Shown one piece after another: positions 11,601 to 19,088 of a stretch of 64,000 nt of DNA. The notes below the pieces were generated by a model. That model searched no databases. It was given only the letters and a program-made list of their open reading frames with translations, and was not told the origin of the DNA. Position 1 is the stretch's first letter. The number at the start of each line of letters is the position of its first letter. A program made the translations under genes and the position numbers. This DNA is from Desulfosudaceae bacterium (GTDB lineage: Bacteria > Desulfobacterota > Desulfobacteria > Desulfobacterales > Desulfosudaceae), in contig CAXXDV010000001.1 of the NCBI GenBank assembly GCA_963674745.2, positions 1,632,001 to 1,696,000 on the forward strand, given 5' to 3'.

Positions 11601-11864
11601 ACCCGAAGAATCGCTGACGGCGGTCATATACAAAAGCTTGTCAAAACCCGTCATTTTTTGTTCGATGATCTGGACGACGCTGTTTTCTACCGTTTCCGCT
11701 GAAGCGCCGGGGTAAAAGGCGTCAATCGCAATGGTCGGCGGGGCGATCGGCGGGTACTGCGAGATCGGCAGGTTGTAAATGGCCAATGCCCCCACGATCA
11801 TCATGATAATGGCGATTACCCAGGCAAAAACCGGACGGTCGAGAAAAAATTTTGAAAGCATCAC
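8688..11864 (-). CDS. RND efflux permease (HAE1, AcrB/MexB family)
   Basis: 1058 aa; FFLDRPVFAWVIAI, ISQYPPIAPP, GLLVDDAIVVVENVER, KNAILIV, RLRPIVMTSMAF. Confidence 0.96.
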   Translation of the reverse strand: MMLSKFFLDRPVFAWVIAIIMMIVGALAIYNLPISQYPPIAPPTIAIDAFYPGASAETVENSVVQIIEQKMTGFDKLLYMTAVSDSSGAGRLELTFAPGTDPDQAWTEVQNKLNLAMSSLPDVIQRQGVKVSKSTRNWLMIVGLISEDGSMNGDDLRDYAQSKLETVLARVPGVGEVNSFGTQYAMRIWLDPDKLTDYQLTISDVISSLKRYNAEVSAGQFGGLPAVEGQRLNTTIIVQNMLETPEEFAEVPIRIRPDGSIIRVKDVGWTELGAERYDTDALNNGNPTAAMAVRLAAGANALKTADAVREKMVELSNYFPPGMKVIYPYDTTPFVRVAIEEVVKTLFEAIILVFLVMFLFLGNFRATLIPTLAVPVVILGTFAVLGLFNYSINMLTMFAMVLAIGLLVDDAIVVVENVERVMQDEGLGPREATAKSMEEITSALIGIGLVLAAVFGPMAFFGGSTGVIYRQFSVTLISAMLLSVLVALILTPVLCASLLKPVGKGHAVSDVGFRMFQPFFRWFNRNFNRIRDGYRNMVGGILNHKISFFIIYLLIVGGLFYLFGKMPTAYLPDEDQGMMMIQAELPTGSTMEQTEKVMDEIRAYLMEDEKEAVDSALTLVGRGFAGVAQNMGLGFIRLKDWDLRDRPELKVKALVERAMGRFAQIRNARIFAFAPPAVVELGMANGFDFQLQDRGGLGHAALMNARNQLLGMAWADKRLTRVRPNGMADVPEYRVNVDWERAGVLGVPIDAINHTISAAFGGSYVNDFIQGGRVKKVFVQADAPKRMLPSDIDRLYVRNTAGEMTPFTAFASGSWSYGSPRLERFNSFPSMNIQGEAAPGRSTGEAMAIMEDFVSRLPKDIGYDWSGISYQERMAKSQTGLLYAFSMIVIFLCLAALYESWTVPISIMLALPLGVIGGVAASMIRGFPNDVYFQIGMLTVLGLTTKNAILIVQFAMHRVKSGMGLVEATLEGARLRLRPIVMTSMAFGFGVLPLAMATGAGAGAQTAIGTGVLGGMLTATFLAIFFIPLFYVTVVKLFGKKKSTQMSVPEAGISAEAR

Positions 11865-13063
11865 TCGCCTCCGTCTTCGGCTTTTTCAGGTGCCGGCGCG
11901 GCGGACCCCATGGGAACGGCCTTGACCTGAGCCCCCGGTCTGAGATTCAGCCGGCCTTCCACAATGACCCGGTCTCCGGCGGACAGGCCATCCATGACCA
12001 GCCACCGGTCTCCCAGCGCCCGATCCAGTTTCAGGAGCCGTTGTTGAACCGTGCCGGTTTCATCCACCACCAGGGCGAATGCTTCGCCCTTGGGGTTGCG
12101 GCTGACGCCTTCCTGGGGCGCCAGAATGGCGTCGGTAAGAAGGCCTTCTGAGATCACCGCCCGGGCGTACATGCCGGGCAAAAGAAGTAAGTCCGGGTTC
12201 GGCACCACGATGCGCATGGTGTAGGAACCGGTGGCCGGGTCGACGGTCACATCCCGGAATTGCAGCTTGCCTTCAATCGGATAGGGGGTTCCGTCTTCCA
12301 GAATTATGGCTGCCTTTTTGGCGTCCTGGCTGTCCGGGCTGATGCGGCCGGTTTCCAGCCCCCGTTTTAGACGAAGCAGTTCGGCCGAAGACTGGGTGAC
12401 ATCCACATAAATCGGATCCAGCTGCTGGATGGTCGCCAGGGCCATGGGCTGATAAGCCGTTACCATTGCCCCGTCGGTCACGCTGGATTTGCCGATACGG
12501 CCGGAAATCGGTGCCGTGACCCGGGTGTACGCCAGGTTGATACGAGCGGTTTCCACCACCGCCTGCCAATACTGAATCTGGGCCAGCGCCTTGCTAACGG
12601 CCGCGGCCGCGTCATCATAGTCCTGCTGGCTGACAGCCTTGTCGTCAAGCAGTTCCCGGTATCGTTCGGCACGGGCCTTTGTAGACGGCAGGTTGGCTTC
12701 GGCTACGGCCAGAGACGCCAGGGCGGAATCCAGGGCCGCCTGAAACTGGGCCGGGTCGATCTGATAAAGTGGCTGGCCGGCTTTGACCTCCGAGCCTTCC
12801 CGGAACTGTCGTTTGAGTATGATTCCGCTTACCTGTGGTCTGACTTCCGCTATCAGGTAAGCGGATGTGCGGCCCGGCAGTTCACTGGTCAATTCAACCT
12901 TTTGCGAGGCGATGGTCTCGACACCCACTTCCGGAACACGTGCGGCCGCCATATCCTGTTTTTCGCTCTCTTTCTGGCAGCCGGTCAGCCCTGATAAAGC
13001 GGCCAGAATCACCAGAGGCCATATCCACTTGAAGGGTTTAAGGTCATTTTTATTAAAGCGCAT
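11861..13063 (-). CDS. RND periplasmic adaptor subunit (AcrA/MexA family)
   Basis: Lipobox LTGC; ELPGRTSAYLIAEVRPQVSGII; APISGRIGKS; SD GGGAGA before ATG 13063. Confidence 0.93.
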   Translation of the reverse strand: MRFNKNDLKPFKWIWPLVILAALSGLTGCQKESEKQDMAAARVPEVGVETIASQKVELTSELPGRTSAYLIAEVRPQVSGIILKRQFREGSEVKAGQPLYQIDPAQFQAALDSALASLAVAEANLPSTKARAERYRELLDDKAVSQQDYDDAAAAVSKALAQIQYWQAVVETARINLAYTRVTAPISGRIGKSSVTDGAMVTAYQPMALATIQQLDPIYVDVTQSSAELLRLKRGLETGRISPDSQDAKKAAIILEDGTPYPIEGKLQFRDVTVDPATGSYTMRIVVPNPDLLLLPGMYARAVISEGLLTDAILAPQEGVSRNPKGEAFALVVDETGTVQQRLLKLDRALGDRWLVMDGLSAGDRVIVEGRLNLRPGAQVKAVPMGSAAPAPEKAEDGGE

Positions 13064-13114
13064 CAAAATCTCCCACATTACGATAATAAATGTTGTCCAT
13101 GTCAGTCGCATGAT

Positions 13115-13747
13115 TTATTGCGGGCTGAGCAGGGGGTTTAAAAATATATCCAGAATAACGTCCGGGTCCTCGGGAAAAGGGTTGCGTTCAGGTGACTCAA
13201 GCCAGCGCAGCAGAAAGCCGTCAATAACGCTGTCCAGGGCCACGGCCAGGGCATGCGGGTCGGCAATTTTTTGAAACAGACCGCTTTTTATCCCGTTTCC
13301 AAAAACAAGTGCCAATTGCTCCAGAAATGCGTCCATCCGCTTTCGTAAGGCGTCATCCAGACCGGCCTTGGAATTGTAGCTCGCCCCTTTGCTTTCGGCC
13401 AGAAAGAGGCGGACAAAGGGCAGATTGCTCCGGAACATATCGACGTGGAGACGAACAAAATTTCTTAGTTTTTCGATTTCGTCACCGGGCCCTTCCAAAG
13501 CATCCAGAAAAGCCGCTTCAAAACGGTCGCACTGCTCAATCACCAGGTCTCTATACAGACATTCCTTGTTCTGGAAAAACTTATACAGGGTGCCGATGGC
13601 AAATTCCGAAGCCTCGGCGATTTCCTGCATGGATACACTGTGGTATCCTTTTTCAGAAAAAAGACTCAGTGCGGCTTCGAGTATCTCCTGTCGCTGCCTC
13701 AGTTTTTCTCTTTCCCGTCTTGAAGGCTTTTCGGTTTTCGTTGTCAC
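13115..13747 (-). CDS. TetR/AcrR family transcriptional regulator
   Basis: HTH ILEAALSLFSEKGYHSVSMQEIAEASEFAIGTLYKFFQNKE; GTG start at 13747 after GGAGAGG and downstream of the predicted promoter. Confidence 0.9.
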   Translation of the reverse strand: MTTKTEKPSRREREKLRQRQEILEAALSLFSEKGYHSVSMQEIAEASEFAIGTLYKFFQNKECLYRDLVIEQCDRFEAAFLDALEGPGDEIEKLRNFVRLHVDMFRSNLPFVRLFLAESKGASYNSKAGLDDALRKRMDAFLEQLALVFGNGIKSGLFQKIADPHALAVALDSVIDGFLLRWLESPERNPFPEDPDVILDIFLNPLLSPQ

Positions 13748-13790
13748 AGGGCCTCTCCGGCCGGCGCCTTGGATGCTGTCCGGCTGGATG

Positions 13791-13853
13791 TGAATATTGG
13801 ATTCAAAAAATGAATAAAAATTCAAATTATAAAATCGTTCTTCATAAAGTCAA
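13791..13853 (-). promoter_or_regulatory. Sigma70 promoter of the tetR-RND operon with two candidate TetR operators
   Basis: Minus-strand TTGACT (13853-13848), 16-nt spacer, TATAAT (13831-13826); palindromes TGAAT-N4-ATTCA (13811-13824) and TGAAT-N5-ATTCA (13791-13805) just downstream. Confidence 0.6.
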
Positions 13854-14058: not shown

Positions 14059-14087
14059 TTGACGATTGTTAAAGTTAAACGTATAAT
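14059..14087 (+). promoter_or_regulatory. Near-consensus sigma70 promoter upstream of the candidate selenoprotein gene
   Basis: TTGACG, 17-nt spacer, TATAAT. Confidence 0.7.
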
Positions 14088-14225
14088 ATAAAAATTTGTT
14101 GTTCCGGCTTTGGGCAGGCCTTCAGGATTACATAAATGTTTGTATGTAATCGGATGTTGACATCATGAGTGTAGCAAGGTTTAATCCTCGCCGGTGCCAA
14201 GTTACTTAACAGAGGAGGAAAATAC

Positions 14226-15245
14226 ATGTCTGTAAAACGTTTTCTGCAAACCCATCTGAAACATTTCGCCTGTTACACGATTCTGCTTCTGGCATGCGCC
14301 TTGTTGGTTATGCCGGACTCTGCAAAGGCTGCTTGAGGAAACCCTAGGCTGACCGTGAATGTCAGCCCGGCCGAAGGCGGTGATGTTACCTCACCGCAAT
14401 TCGATACTCCTGATGGATATCCGGTTAATTTTACTTGCAGTGTTGATTATGTCCTTACAGCAGAACCAGAGGCCGCTTACGTGTTTAAAAATTGGGTCAT
14501 TAATGGTATGACGTCAACCGTGAACCCCTTATCAATAACTGTTGCCGACGGTGAAAAATCCGTAACAGCGGTTTTCCGAATTCCGGGAACCGAAAATAAC
14601 CCGCCGACGGCGGATGCGGGGGCTGATCAAACCGTCATCGAAAAGCAAGAGGTAACACTGGATGGCTCTGGTTCTTTTGATCCGGATGGTAAAATTAGCA
14701 GCTATCTCTGGGAGCAGATCGGCGGCGCCATTGTTAGTTTGTCCAATGACAAAGCTGTTTCGCCGAAGTTTACAGCCATGGAAATCCTCTCTGATACAGA
14801 AACCGAGGTTCTGACATTTAGATTGACGGTTGAAGATTTTGACGGCGCAACCGATATTGATACGGTTACGATTACTGTCAGAGACTCCGGCAATGATCCG
14901 CCGGTGGCCGATGCCGGGGAGGACCAGACGGTTATTCAGCGATATGTCGTGACGCTGGATGGGTCCGGGTCGACAGACCCAAACGGAGTAGATGATATCG
15001 CCAGTTATTTTTGGGAGCAGACAGAAGGTATTGCCGTCGCCTTGTCCGATACGACTGCGGTCAAACCGACCTTTACGGCTCCGGATGTTTTTGATTCCGA
15101 CCAACCGGAAAAATTGGTGTTTATGCTGACAGTGGGGGATACCGCAGACGACACTTCGGAGGATTATGTTACCATAACCGTCGAGCGCGGTCCTATCGGC
15201 GGTGACAGCAGCAACGCCGGATGTTTCGTTGGAACCATGAGGTGA
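14226..15245 (+). CDS. Probable secreted selenoprotein: signal peptide, Sec37, InlB-B-repeat-like domain, two PKD/K319L-like domains, C-terminal GCF motif
   Basis: SD AGAGGAGG; MSVKRFLQTHLKHFACYTILLLACALLVMPDSAKAA-[TGA 14334-14336]-GNPRLTVNVSPAEGGDVTSPQF is in frame with ORF 14355..15245; the TGA aligns with Cys36 of the paralog; read-through length 339 aa equals the paralog; SECIS-like hairpin follows. Confidence 0.8.
14337..14367 (+). promoter_or_regulatory. Candidate bacterial SECIS element
   Basis: Starts 10 nt after the UGA: perfect 7-bp stem GGCTGAC (14347-14353)/GTCAGCC (14361-14367), loop CGTGAAT with G in second position; apical loop 17 nt from the UGA. Confidence 0.7.
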
Positions 15246-15436
15246 GGATTTTATCTTTTTTTGCCGTTTATGGCCTGACTTCAGGGATATCTCCGGCCTG
15301 TGACGGGATCGTCACGGGCCGGTCAATCCTTGTGGCCTTTTTTCACAAACCGGTTTCGGCCGGGATGCCCTTCCTCGGTTTTTTTCGCGGTCTGATACGC
15401 GTCCATTATTTTTTTTCAAAAAAAACACAATGGTAT

Positions 15437-15572: not shown

Positions 15573-16592
15573 ATGGGCCATAAACCTTTTTTGATAAGCA
15601 GCCTGGGGTTTTTTCAATGCGTTTTTGTGCTTCTGGCCGGACTTGTTTTGATGCTGCCCGGCCATGCTGAAGCAGCTTGTCAATGTGAACTTCACGTCAG
15701 GGTCAACCCTGCAGGAAGCGGAAATATTACCTCCCCCCAGTTTCCGACCAACCCGACCAGATATCCGTCAGTTTTTGTCTCAAGTAACCAGTACAGGCTA
15801 ACAGCTGTTCCGCAGGAAGGGTATGTGTTCGTAAATTGGGAGGTGAATTACACGACCAACCCCAACAACCCGATTAATGTATCAATAGAAACTGAAGGGC
15901 AAAAAACCGTTACGGCTTTTTTTCAAAGAGCTGAGGAAATTCCGAACCTTCCTCCAACCGCTGACGCCGGTCAGGACCAATCCGTCATTGAAGGTGAGTT
16001 GGCAACACTGGACGGCTCCGGTTCTGTTGATCCGGATGACGGTATAAGCAGTTATTTCTGGCAGCAGATTGCAGGCGTTGACGTGACGCTTTCCGACCCA
16101 TCAGCCATAAACCCCGGGTTCACGGCTCCGCCGGTATCGTCGAATCCGTTAACATTAAAATTTCGCCTGACCGTTGAAGACAATAGCGGTGCGGTTGATA
16201 TTGATGATGTTACCGTTACCGCTTTAGAGGCAGACAATGTGCCGCCGACTGCTGATGCGGGTGACAATCAGACCGTTACCCAGAGAAGCATGGTAACATT
16301 GGATGCTTCCGGTTCTTTTGATGCCAATGGAAACGATGATATAAAAACGTATTTTTGGGAACAAACCATGGGCACCAGGGTGCCCCTGTCAGACAACACG
16401 GCCGTTAAGCCGACTTTCAGGGCGCCTGAAATATCCTTTGGGGACACCCTGTCACTGGAATTTCGGCTGACATTGGAGGATGCTCTCGGCACTAAGGCTC
16501 AAGACAGGGTCCAGGTCGTTGTCGTTCCAGACGCCGTCAGTGGCGGCAGTGGAGGCAGTTCGGGTTGTTTTATTTCCAGTGTCGTCCATTAA
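15573..16592 (+). CDS. Secreted PKD/K319L-domain protein, Cys-containing paralog of 14226..15245
   Basis: SD GAGGAGG; signal peptide ending AEA then ACQC; two PPTADAG.DQ.V...TLD.SGS.D domains; ends GGSGGSSGCFISSVVH. Confidence 0.88.
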   Translation: MGHKPFLISSLGFFQCVFVLLAGLVLMLPGHAEAACQCELHVRVNPAGSGNITSPQFPTNPTRYPSVFVSSNQYRLTAVPQEGYVFVNWEVNYTTNPNNPINVSIETEGQKTVTAFFQRAEEIPNLPPTADAGQDQSVIEGELATLDGSGSVDPDDGISSYFWQQIAGVDVTLSDPSAINPGFTAPPVSSNPLTLKFRLTVEDNSGAVDIDDVTVTALEADNVPPTADAGDNQTVTQRSMVTLDASGSFDANGNDDIKTYFWEQTMGTRVPLSDNTAVKPTFRAPEISFGDTLSLEFRLTLEDALGTKAQDRVQVVVVPDAVSGGSGGSSGCFISSVVH

Positions 16593-16729: not shown

Positions 16730-18085
16730 TTGTCCATGAAAAAAACCGTAAAAACCCGCCCGGCCATAATAGCGCGCAGCAAAAGTTTTATTGAAACAGA
16801 GATCTGGAGACTCCGCCTCAAGGATATAGAGGGGAAAAAAGGGGCGTCGGTCAAAAGTTTAAGAATTCTGCTCATCGCGATAAAAGAGTTTATTGCTGAT
16901 CAATGCGCTTTGCGTGCGTCCGCACTGACGTTATATTCGCTTCTTTCCATTGTTCCGGTTATCGCTATGGCCTTTGCCATCGCCAAGGGCTTCGGGGTCC
17001 AGAATATGCTGGAAAAAGAACTGCTGGGGCAATTTGCCGGACAGGAGGAGGTGCTTAACAAAATAATCGAATATGCCCGCACGCTTCTGGAGCAGACCAA
17101 GGGCGGATTGTTGGCCGGCATCGGTGCCGCCACCCTGCTATGGTCGGTGCTCAAAGTAATGACCAATATCGAAAAATGTTTTAATGTGGTCTGGGCCAAC
17201 ACCACCCCCCGCGCGCTGGGAAAAAAGTTCAGTGACTATCTCTCCATTATTCTGGTAACCCCGCTGTTGCTGATTATGTCCGGCAGTGCCACGGTTCTGG
17301 TCGTCAGCGAAGTCACTACGATAACGGAAAAAATCGCGGTTTTGGGCTTTTTCAGCCCGATTATAATGTTGTTTTTAAAATTACTGCCTTACGTTGTTAT
17401 CTGGGTATTATTCACTTTTGTCTACGTGTTTATGCCCAACACCAAAGTTGCGGTCAAATCCGGCTTGATCGGTGGTATTATCGCCGGCACGGCCTTCAAA
17501 TTATTGCAATGGCTTTATATCTATTTTCAGGTCGGGGTGTCCCGCTACAATGCCATATACGGCAGTTTTGCCGCCCTGCCGCTGTTTTTGATCTGGTTGC
17601 AGCTGAGCTGGCTGATCGTCCTGTTCGGGGCCGAGCTGTCGTTCGCCCATCAGAATGTGGATGAATACGAACTGGAACCGGACAGCAGGAAAATCAGTGG
17701 CTTCCTAAGGAAGGTGATCAGTATGTCTGTTGCTCACCTTCTGGTTAAAACATTTCAGCAAGGCGAGAAACCGTTGAGCGGGGATCAGGTATCGGAAATC
17801 CTGGATATTCCGATCCGTCTGATAAAAGAGGTCCTTGATGCGCTTTCCGAAAGCGGCTTGATCACCCGAACAATTGATGAACAAGGAAAGGCCATCACCT
17901 GGCAACCGGCCAGGGACATCAACACGATCACCGTTGCCTCGGTTATTGAGACGCTGGAAAAGAGCGGCGTAAATGAGCTGCCGGTAGAACAAACACGGGA
18001 ATTCCGTCTTCTTTCTGATACCGTAACGGCCTGTTATGATGCCATTAGAACATCTCCGTCCAACATGGCGTTAAAAGACATCTGA
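16730..18085 (+). CDS. YihY/BrkB family membrane protein with C-terminal HTH-like domain
   Basis: RASALTLYSLLSIVP, YVFMPNTKV, YNAIYGSFAALPLFLIWLQLSWLIVLFGAE. Confidence 0.9.
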   Translation: MSMKKTVKTRPAIIARSKSFIETEIWRLRLKDIEGKKGASVKSLRILLIAIKEFIADQCALRASALTLYSLLSIVPVIAMAFAIAKGFGVQNMLEKELLGQFAGQEEVLNKIIEYARTLLEQTKGGLLAGIGAATLLWSVLKVMTNIEKCFNVVWANTTPRALGKKFSDYLSIILVTPLLLIMSGSATVLVVSEVTTITEKIAVLGFFSPIIMLFLKLLPYVVIWVLFTFVYVFMPNTKVAVKSGLIGGIIAGTAFKLLQWLYIYFQVGVSRYNAIYGSFAALPLFLIWLQLSWLIVLFGAELSFAHQNVDEYELEPDSRKISGFLRKVISMSVAHLLVKTFQQGEKPLSGDQVSEILDIPIRLIKEVLDALSESGLITRTIDEQGKAITWQPARDINTITVASVIETLEKSGVNELPVEQTREFRLLSDTVTACYDAIRTSPSNMALKDI

Positions 18086-18201
18086 AAAAACACTCCCCCC
18101 TCTTGACACCGTTTTCCTGATTATTATTATTTTTAATAAAGAAACCGGTGAACTTATAAGGCACCATTATAATAACTAAAAAGGAAAAAGGGGGTATTAC
18201 C

Positions 18202-18645
18202 ATGATTACTTTTCCGACTTTTGATCTGCGAAGTTCATTTGATGAACTTGACAGCGTGCGCCGGAGATTGGACACCCTTCTCGGCGCTGTTAAGCAGGGC
18301 GGCTACCGCCTTGCAGGAAGCGGCGTGTTTCCGTTAATCAATCTTACCGAAGATAAAGACAATTATTACTTAAGAGCGGAACTGCCCGGTGTTAAGGCGG
18401 ATGACCTGGATATTCATACCACACAGAATGATATCGTTCTTGCCGGTGAACGCAAACAGGCGGAACAGGGGGAAAACGTCCGCTTTCATCGGCGTGAACG
18501 GGATATGGGGCAGTTCTCCCGGGTTGTTAAACTGCCCGGTGAGATTGATAATGATAAAATTGAGGCCCAACTGGCTTTGGGTGTGTTGACCGTTACCATA
18601 CCCAAATCCGAGGTTGCCAAGCCCCGTCAGATTCAAATCAAATAA
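18202..18645 (+). CDS. Hsp20 small heat shock protein
   Basis: FPLINLTED, AELPGV, FHRRERDMGQFSR, GVLTVTIPKSEVAKPRQIQIK. Confidence 0.93.
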   Translation: MITFPTFDLRSSFDELDSVRRRLDTLLGAVKQGGYRLAGSGVFPLINLTEDKDNYYLRAELPGVKADDLDIHTTQNDIVLAGERKQAEQGENVRFHRRERDMGQFSRVVKLPGEIDNDKIEAQLALGVLTVTIPKSEVAKPRQIQIK

Positions 18646-18680
18646 ATTTTTGATTTTTAAAAGGAAAGGAGGCGGTTATC

Positions 18681-19088
18681 ATGTCAGTTGATAAAAGTAA
18701 GGAAATGCAGGTCAAGGAAAAGCAGGAAGTCGCTTCTCCGGAGCAGACAACACCGGGCCCTTACTACACGCCGACAGTGGATATTTTCGAAACCGATAGT
18801 GCCATAACCCTGCTGGCGGATTTACCCGGGGTAAAACCCGAGGGCCTGACAATTGATCTTCGGGATAACGTGTTGACCCTGACCGGGGAAATTGCGCCGT
18901 TTGAAAACGCGAATGAGGAAGACCTGATCATTGAATATGAGGTGGGCAAATATTTTCGCCAGTTTACGATATCCAATATCATTGATCAGGAGAAAATCCA
19001 GGCGAATCTGAATGACGGTGTTTTAAACCTGATGCTGCCCAAAGCGGATAAAGCCCAACCCAGAAAAATAGCTGTAAAAAGTGCATAA
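18681..19088 (+). CDS. Hsp20 small heat shock protein
   Basis: PTVDIFET, ADLPGV, YFRQFTI, DGVLNLMLPK...QPRKIAV. Confidence 0.93.
   Translation: MSVDKSKEMQVKEKQEVASPEQTTPGPYYTPTVDIFETDSAITLLADLPGVKPEGLTIDLRDNVLTLTGEIAPFENANEEDLIIEYEVGKYFRQFTISNIIDQEKIQANLNDGVLNLMLPKADKAQPRKIAVKSA

Follow-up and report, generated by a model that had tools for sequence, protein, structure and literature searches.

An in-frame UGA behind a signal peptide points to an unlisted family of exported bacterial selenoproteins

Why should a gene for a surface protein carry a stop codon directly behind its signal peptide? The question is raised by a gene at 14226..15245 (plus strand) of a 64,000-nucleotide stretch of a Desulfosudaceae bacterium genome (GenBank assembly GCA_963674745.2, contig CAXXDV010000001.1, positions 1,632,001 to 1,696,000). 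We call this whole stretch the window, and coordinates without a contig refer to it. In this gene an in-frame TGA (14334-14336) follows the codons of a signal peptide, and the frame then stays open until a second TGA (15243-15245), so that read-through gives 1020 nt and a product of 339 residues. A first-pass annotation of the window had proposed that the TGA encodes selenocysteine (Sec) near the mature N-terminus of a PKD-domain surface protein. We propose that UGA 14334-14336 is indeed read as Sec (U37), that SelB and a selenocysteine insertion sequence (SECIS) decode it, and that the product is an exported surface protein from a selenoprotein family that current lists do not include. We put the probability of this reading at about 0.88.

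The gene is followed in tandem by a paralog (15573..16592, plus strand) that is one continuous open reading frame (ORF). Alignment bore out the earlier statement that the two genes have the same length (1020 nt, 339 residues) and that the paralog has a Cys in the TGA column: its TGT codon for Cys36 (15678-15680) aligns with the TGA. The other elements of the gene's 5' region are also where the first-pass annotation had placed them. They include a sigma-70-like promoter (TTGACG-17 nt-TATAAT, 14059..14087, which agrees at 11/12 positions and is a consensus match only), a Shine-Dalgarno sequence read as GGAGG (14214..14218, 7 nt before ATG 14226), and a 36-residue signal peptide (14226..14333) with a basic n-region, a hydrophobic core (10-residue Kyte-Doolittle maximum of 3.38), and the end AKA-A. 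A perfect 7-bp hairpin that had been reported 10 nt after the TGA is present as GGCUGAC-CGUGAAU-GUCAGCC (14347..14367), with a conserved 6-bp core at 14348-14366. The paralog lacks this SECIS-type stem.

The same arrangement recurs. A six-frame search of the source genome with the read-through protein gave 12 matches, five of which hold one TGA, and in all five genes the TGA is in the same column, directly between the signal peptide and the translated G-x-P-x-LTV[ND]VSP. A congener (G002) has six matches, five with TGA at that column and one Cys copy (L037), which again stands in tandem with a PKD-type Sec copy. We also ran a profile search over 401 genomes of the order. This search was blind to the hairpin, and we counted a match as leader-reaching if its query start was at or before position 20. 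One TGA was present in 27 of the 32 leader-reaching matches, and two of the other five were the Cys paralogs. In two more of the five, L054 and L059, the signal peptide is joined directly to the repeat, with neither Cys nor Sec. All 14 of the loci that we translated from other genomes of the order read signal peptide-[A/G]-U-G. Finally, a pattern scan with one genome per species found at least 118 loci; among the matches listed, 27 had an in-frame TGA at most 12 codons upstream, of which 23 were judged genuine by their leader and motif and four were judged to be chance matches in high-GC DNA. The genuine loci are assigned to the Desulfobacteraceae, Desulfococcaceae, Desulfosalsimonadaceae, Desulfobacterales, Syntrophaceae, "Deltaproteobacteria," and three metagenome-assembled genomes (MAGs) of Dehalococcoidales.

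After duplicates were removed, we had 44 distinct Sec genes, from Desulfobacterales-type and Dehalococcoidales genomes. Both the TGA and the hairpin, whose conservation in homologs had been named as a check, are kept in 10/10 TGA genes of the two congeners, in the 14/14 loci inspected from other genomes of the order, and in the 23 further loci among the pattern-scan matches listed (some of these are identical to earlier loci). Because the combination of TGA and hairpin recurs in 44 distinct genes, it is far beyond chance. Only two Cys forms at the Sec column were seen, the tandem paralogs of the two congeners. (An exhaustive search with the 45-sequence module profile described below gave 82,442 matches among representative proteins, but these were dominated by giant multi-repeat proteins and were uninformative for Cys forms.)

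The hairpin sequence GCUGAC-CGUGNNN-GUCAGC is found in all 44 Sec genes but one, L072, which has a compensatory variant; no other departure is seen in the 24 Sec genes that were aligned. The variant reads cUUUGAC-CGUGUCC-GUCAAAg, with two compensatory double changes that restore both altered pairs, and the peptide becomes LTVSVK. The stem starts 11 nt after the UGA in 28 genes, 14 nt in nine, 17 nt in six, and 20 nt in one. All of these spacings are of the form 3n+2, and therefore frame continuity is always kept. In the window, the hairpin folds alone at −10.3 kcal/mol, and its 76-nt context, compared with shuffled sequences, gives a z-score of −3.3. The geometry of the family (a stem of 6-7 bp, a 7-nt loop whose second and fourth nucleotides are G, and a distance of 11-20 nt from the UGA) agrees with the usual description of a bacterial SECIS. 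Across the order, the hairpin pattern occurs at 30 sites in 18/401 genomes (13/174 genera), and a reversed control pattern occurs at none.

The hairpin also encodes Leu-Thr-Val-x-Val-Ser, as CUG ACC GUG nnn GUC AGC. Because the stem overlaps a conserved peptide, we ran two controls for coding constraint. First, LTVxVS occurs at nine sites in long ORFs of the source genome, and the hairpin codons are used at five of these, which are exactly the five TGA genes. Second, among the loci chosen by the profile, the perfect 6-bp stem is present at 25/25 L[TS]VxV[SK] sites that are preceded by TGA and at 0/6 sites that are not. (Two further stem matches in these loci are the opposite strand of the palindrome.) Both Cys paralogs lack the stem. 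The hairpin is conserved at its synonymous sites as well.

The machinery to read UGA as Sec is present, which had been named as a check. The source genome (G000; 5.55 Mb in 3 contigs, 99.96% complete) encodes SelA (527 bits), SelB (369.8 bits, versus a cut-off of 242), SelD, and a tRNA-Sec (75 bits, anticodon TCA). Its selD (G000 C1:326061-326981) holds one in-frame TGA and is itself a selenoprotein gene (VAGAG-U-ASK), with a small hairpin (CCAGG-GGA-CCUGG) that has a G-rich loop, lies 15 nt after the UGA, and is comparable to the hairpin of the family. More broadly, SelA was found in 10/10 tested genomes with the TGA form, three of which are Dehalococcoidales MAGs. The source genome also has a second full-length SelB-like gene (G000 C3:1795409-1797292), which at 239.9 bits is just under the cut-off of 242. 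We considered whether the family might have a dedicated second SelB, but we rejected this because the paralog is found in 1/5 other carriers versus 2/5 non-carriers (E ≤ 1e-40).

Where in the mature protein would Sec lie? A hydrophobic leader of 29-57 residues, Met-initiated and with a basic start, is encoded in 44/44 Sec genes, and in all 44 it is followed by [A/G]-U-G..LTVxVSP. We define the family by the signal peptide, the motif [A/G]-U-G-x-P-x-LTVxVSP, and variable surface domains. Leader position −1 is A in 21 genes and G in 20, and position +1 is G in 32 (n = 44). Position −3 is charged (E, K, or D) in 15/44, and in these a perfect AxA lies one residue upstream. Based on the −3/−1 rule for signal peptidase I, Sec is most likely the first or second residue after cleavage (residue 2 in the gene at 14226..15245), which is in line with the earlier placement near the mature N-terminus; +1 or +2 agrees with the AxA rule. 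We also considered lipoprotein processing (Lgt/LspA). The lipobox consensus is [LVI][ASTVI][GAS] directly before the +1 chalcogen residue, and we rejected a lipobox, in favor of the AxA site, because only 6/44 leaders have L or V at position −3.

The only Pfam matches of the product are PF18998, PF22352, and PF18911. The description as a non-enzyme, Ig-like or adhesin-like protein is borne out by the Pfam domains of this gene and of its relatives. The description as Sec on a PKD-domain surface protein was right about the PKD domains, but the domain that bears the Sec is not a PKD domain: it is a divergent InlB B-repeat (Flg_new_2, PF18998; residues 43-118, 14352..14579, 33.8 bits versus a cut-off of 23.6). 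The K319L-like PKD domains follow it. The first is at residues 131-218 (14616..14879; PF22352, E = 1.3e-36, in two stretches) and the second is at approximately 14895..15170 (two stretches in Pfam; its limits were set by the repeat register). The gene ends with a Gly/Ser-rich linker and the C-terminal tail GCFVGTMR (15207..15242; the codon for Cys333 is 15222-15224). We rejected read-through of the terminal TGA as well because the hydrophobic stretch beyond that stop (GFYLFLPFMA) is unmatched in the paralogs. Besides the InlB repeat, two other points go beyond the first-pass annotation: this is a multi-copy family in two phyla, and the Sec module has a single partner Cys.

Among 24 scanned relatives, PF18998 scored above its cut-off in 17. 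What follows the Sec module varies. The gene at 14226..15245, one paralog, and the congener's ortholog continue with two PKD domains and end in a Gly-rich GCF tail. In 10 of the 24, a rhodanese domain lies directly behind the module and is followed by PKD repeats; SdrD-B, fn3, or additional InlB repeats are seen in others. We located the rhodanese loop by pattern in six of the 10 domains (L046, L047, L137, L154, L073, and L050): four have Asp at the catalytic position (YDQxG), L073 has Gly, and only L050 has Cys (CRSGNRS). Yet another arrangement is seen in three tandem paralogs of the source genome (G000 C1:2629575-2634744), in which the Sec module is joined to a four-fold repeat of about 430 residues with the motifs "YFPHV..SPWxTEI.IINT" and "IYISHIASN..FWTG." This region has no Pfam assignment beyond a weak match to DUF5719, and the combination is also found in the congener and in several MAGs (relatives L039, L041, L043, L045, L144, L155, L172, and L180).

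The C-termini suggest that family members are anchored surface proteins, with Sec predicted to be at the distal tip. A GCF[ILV]x5-7 tail ends nine complete Desulfobacterales-type members, and in the three members from Dehalococcoidales the chain closes with a transmembrane helix and basic residues. The GCF tail resembles NF041763, a putative sorting motif termed the CFI box, but it scores below the cut-off of 15.9 bits (10.9 for the gene at 14226..15245, 14.6 for the tandem paralog, and 8.2 for L004). We know of no sorting enzyme for this tail, and a literature search found no paper on the CFI-box motif. In the source genome, about 11 large proteins end in a Gly/Ser-rich linker and GCF[ILV]x5-6-stop, including those encoded by the two tandem genes (15207-15242 and 16550-16589); the pattern has 15 matches, of which four were judged to be chance, and nine sites remain besides the two tandem genes.

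We aligned 45 modules, namely the 44 Sec forms and the tandem Cys paralog of the gene at 14226..15245. Exactly one other Cys is present in 42 of the 45 (two modules have more), and the columns of this partner Cys are mutually exclusive. It is in a "TC" column in 21/45, which includes Cys71 of the gene at 14226..15245 (TGC, 14436..14438), the single partner of that Sec module. In 14/45 it is in the turn before the last strand, in 3/45 in an insertion, in 1/45 at a nearby turn, and in 5/45 (counting the Cys paralog) it is one to three residues from the Sec column. The mature proteins of L103, L117, L145, L061, and L062 contain no Cys other than this partner, and in the internal repeats of L103 and L117 the partner position is occupied by Asp or Ser. 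The AF2 model of residues 35-128 has a pLDDT of 93.3 (the mean for the first ten residues is 88), and in its strand order the connections from strand 4 to strand 8 are short hairpins. On that basis, the three loop positions of the partner would be at the same pole of the domain. Provided that the first and last strands are parallel, as they are in this fold, the N-terminus would share that pole. From the count of one partner Cys per module, we infer that Sec and its lone partner form either an intradomain selenenylsulfide or a two-chalcogen site.

Are there other ways to explain the UGA? One is that it is a real stop, so that the 36 codons before it are a small ORF or leader, translation of the surface protein begins at GTG 14355, and the hairpin serves regulation or coupling. 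This is what automatic annotation implies: ORF calling gives 14355-15245 (296 residues), and the only database protein found at the locus is a truncated call of 254 residues. However, the downstream ORF would then encode a surface protein that has PKD domains and a putative sorting tail yet no signal peptide, even though in 44/44 genes the "leader" reads as a canonical signal peptide. There is no Shine-Dalgarno sequence before GTG 14355, the frame is kept in all 44 genes with their 3n+2 spacings, and the Cys paralog is a continuous ORF of identical length. We therefore consider a real stop to be very improbable. Another idea, that the gene is a nonsense pseudogene or that a TGY codon was misread as TGA in sequencing, has in its favor that the TGA is one base from the paralog's TGT. 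But the TGA is found in 44 distinct genes from many genomes, and the frame downstream is intact, with conservation at the level of domains. As for errors, contigs from two runs (X1 and X2, probably of the source sample) read this stretch without a difference; no RNA run was found that contains it. A sediment-metagenome contig from another study (X4, about 92% identical) has 36 differences over 14150-14632, and none of the 33 that were listed is at 14334-14336 or within 14348-14367. Damage or error is effectively refuted. Every refuting check named in the first-pass annotation (machinery, homologs, and sequencing error) turned out to favor Sec.

If the UGA is translated, it could still be translated without Sec, by near-cognate suppression (as Trp, Cys, or Arg) or by recoding that is independent of SelB. 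Selenium is, after all, deduced here from sequence, and no Rfam model matches the short stem. Against this, SelA is present in every one of the 10 carrier genomes tested, the tandem paralog has Cys at the site, and the Sec codon of the source genome's own selD is followed 15 nt downstream by a comparable hairpin with G in the loop. The stem-loop also has the geometry described for a bacterial SECIS. We judge read-through without Sec to be very improbable as well. Returning to decoding by SelB as Sec, which we prefer, several observations weigh against it or against parts of it. Cys homologs are rare at the UGA column, which is unusual for selenoprotein families. Part of the hairpin's conservation is protein constraint, since it overlaps a conserved peptide, and the compensatory variant was seen only once (L072). 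The stem is just 6-7 bp (−7 to −10.3 kcal/mol), and an Rfam scan of 14200-14500 matched no family and gave only one chance-level match to an sRNA. As for the partner of Sec, the pairing is deduced by counting cysteines, and both L155 and the congener's Cys paralog have no partner Cys.

Putting these together, we propose that UGA 14334-14336 would be decoded as Sec by the ordinary bacterial SelB route, with the hairpin at 14347-14367 serving as the SECIS while also providing the codons of the first beta-strand (L-T-V-N-V-S). The product would be exported, and signal peptidase I would most likely cleave after AKA, which would leave Sec as mature residue 2. Behind the Sec would come the InlB B-repeat domain, the two PKD domains, and a putative CFI-box sorting tail at the C-terminus. 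Given export and this architecture of surface domains, the protein would be a cell-surface protein with a selenol at its free N-terminal tip.

What might the Sec do there? One option is structural: a Sec-Cys bond could clamp the N-terminus, and because it would be harder to reduce than a disulfide, it might be suited to sulfidic, reducing sediment. The other option is a reactive extracellular site for the exchange of sulfur, selenium, or thiophilic metals. The scarcity of Cys forms (2 versus 44 Sec forms) and the frequent rhodanese neighbors lean toward chemistry that requires selenium. A more specific idea is that the Sec-Cys pair at the N-terminus forms an extracellular reaction center with an absolute requirement for selenium, which captures or relays sulfur, selenium, or thiophilic metals at the cell surface, often together with a rhodanese that lacks its Cys. 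We offer this tentatively and think it rather doubtful. If it were true, then selenoprotein-rich anaerobes of sulfidic sediments might, for example, scavenge selenium or handle polysulfide outside the cell, and the family would be the first class of selenoproteins to work as a "selenol tip," exposed at the N-terminus of adhesin-like proteins of the cell surface.

How does the family compare with known systems? Like genes of the fdhF/selD type, it has an in-frame UGA and, within the coding sequence, a stem-loop that begins 11-20 nt on and has G in its apical loop; a paralog with Cys in the UGA column and the full SelABCD machinery in the genome are further points in common. Unlike those genes, it would place Sec at residue 1-2 of an exported, non-enzyme domain that is processed by signal peptidase; its SECIS is nearly invariant across two phyla and doubles as the codons of the first beta-strand; and Cys homologs are rare. 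Ordinary InlB B-repeat (Flg_new_2) proteins, such as PDB 2Y5P, belong to the same domain family (2y5p_A ranks 25th in Foldseek, with a TM of 0.55 over the target), but they have no Sec, no SECIS stem (0/6), and usually no Cys at the partner positions. With CFI-box proteins (NF041763), the family has the Gly-rich linker and the GCF[ILV]x5-7 tail in common, with scores below the cut-off as given above, and that motif has no bearing on the Sec module. The Ig-like domains of Gram-positive pilins and adhesins, which are surface repeats held by covalent intramolecular isopeptide bonds, give weak top matches in Foldseek (best E = 0.029; nothing in the PDB had E ≤ 0.001). We view them as an analogy for a Sec-Cys clamp only, as the chemistry of the cross-link is different, and we claim no membership.

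DUF1573 is a small beta-sandwich domain. A "UGC" selenoprotein with this domain (PF07610) is listed as predicted in Table 1 of PMC13188914, among several entries outside the thioredoxin fold; it is similar to our family in that Sec is next to Gly or Cys, but it is in another Pfam family. The rhodanese-like selenoproteins (forms 1-5; PMC13188914, Table 1, and PMC1976440) occur in selenoprotein-rich Deltaproteobacteria, and their listed Sec motifs (UxxS, UxxG, CxU, and UxxxxU) are assigned to the rhodanese domain. In our family, Sec is about 90 residues upstream of the rhodanese domain, and the gene at 14226..15245 has no rhodanese domain.

The first-pass annotation had recognized no described selenoprotein family, and we likewise found no description in selenoprotein inventories, NCBIfam, or full-text literature. 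In the accessible portion of the 119-family inventory of 2026 (PMC13188914), no family has an InlB-repeat or PKD architecture. The portions of the BSepDB paper and supplement that were available (PMC13326102) have no entry for PF18998, PF22352, PKD, InlB, "repeat," or "surface." The available text on deep-Sep (PMC12013277) does not mention the family, and its authors note that selenoproteins with no or few Cys homologs may be missed by predictors that rely on Cys pairs. The preprint by Haft & Gwadz, as far as its available text goes, describes other families. The module is not covered by any model of NCBIfam Release 20: the only matches were from the PKD region to models of M36 peptidases, the N-terminal 65 residues had no match at E up to 10, and the models for "hypothetical" selenoproteins NF049953 (DG) and NF049942 (DF), which we tried as candidates, did not match the family's loci. 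A word-indexed protein search with residues 1-125 returned only the truncated 254-residue call of the same locus. Finally, in full-text literature (subscription literature was outside the scope), no paper joins selenocysteine with the InlB B-repeat or a selenoprotein with the Listeria-Bacteroides repeat. It is thus strongly supported that these genes make up a predicted selenoprotein family that spans two phyla, is absent from current lists, and has been wrongly recorded as truncated ORFs.

The family may have been overlooked because the frame after the TGA has no signal peptide, because the entry for the locus is a truncated 254-residue call, and because there are few Cys homologs. A rule that combines a signal peptide, a TGA, and the invariant 19-nt stem-loop would correct such calls and would enlarge several of the largest known selenoproteomes. 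The common view of bacterial selenoproteins is of redox enzymes that mostly work inside the cell or in the periplasm. In this family, which has up to five copies per genome, Sec would instead lie at the N-terminus that processing leaves on exported repeat proteins anchored at the surface. The family would also provide a compact natural SECIS and a test case for an extracellular role of selenium in sulfidic habitats.

The neighborhoods of the other four copies in the source genome have no partner gene in common. Near one of these Sec paralogs (C3:1352038-1353066), at a distance of 1.3-4.9 kb and with two ORFs between, are genes that by eye encode a ZnuA/ZnuC/ZnuB-like ABC transporter and a Fur/Zur-like regulator (G000 C3:1347144-1350151). 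This is a single case and may be a coincidence. In the window, no functional link between the pair of surface-protein genes and the flanking ORFs (11861-13825 and 16730-19088) is evident by eye. A terminator-like hairpin followed by a T run (15321..15337, plus strand; a consensus match only) lies behind the Sec gene. Upstream, ORFs on the minus strand (11861-13825) resemble by eye an RND-type efflux membrane-fusion protein and a TetR-like regulator. Downstream (16730-19088) is a membrane protein of 451 residues that by eye is YihY/BrkB-like, and a homologous ORF is also downstream in the congener. Beyond this membrane protein are two small ORFs that look Hsp20-like by eye.

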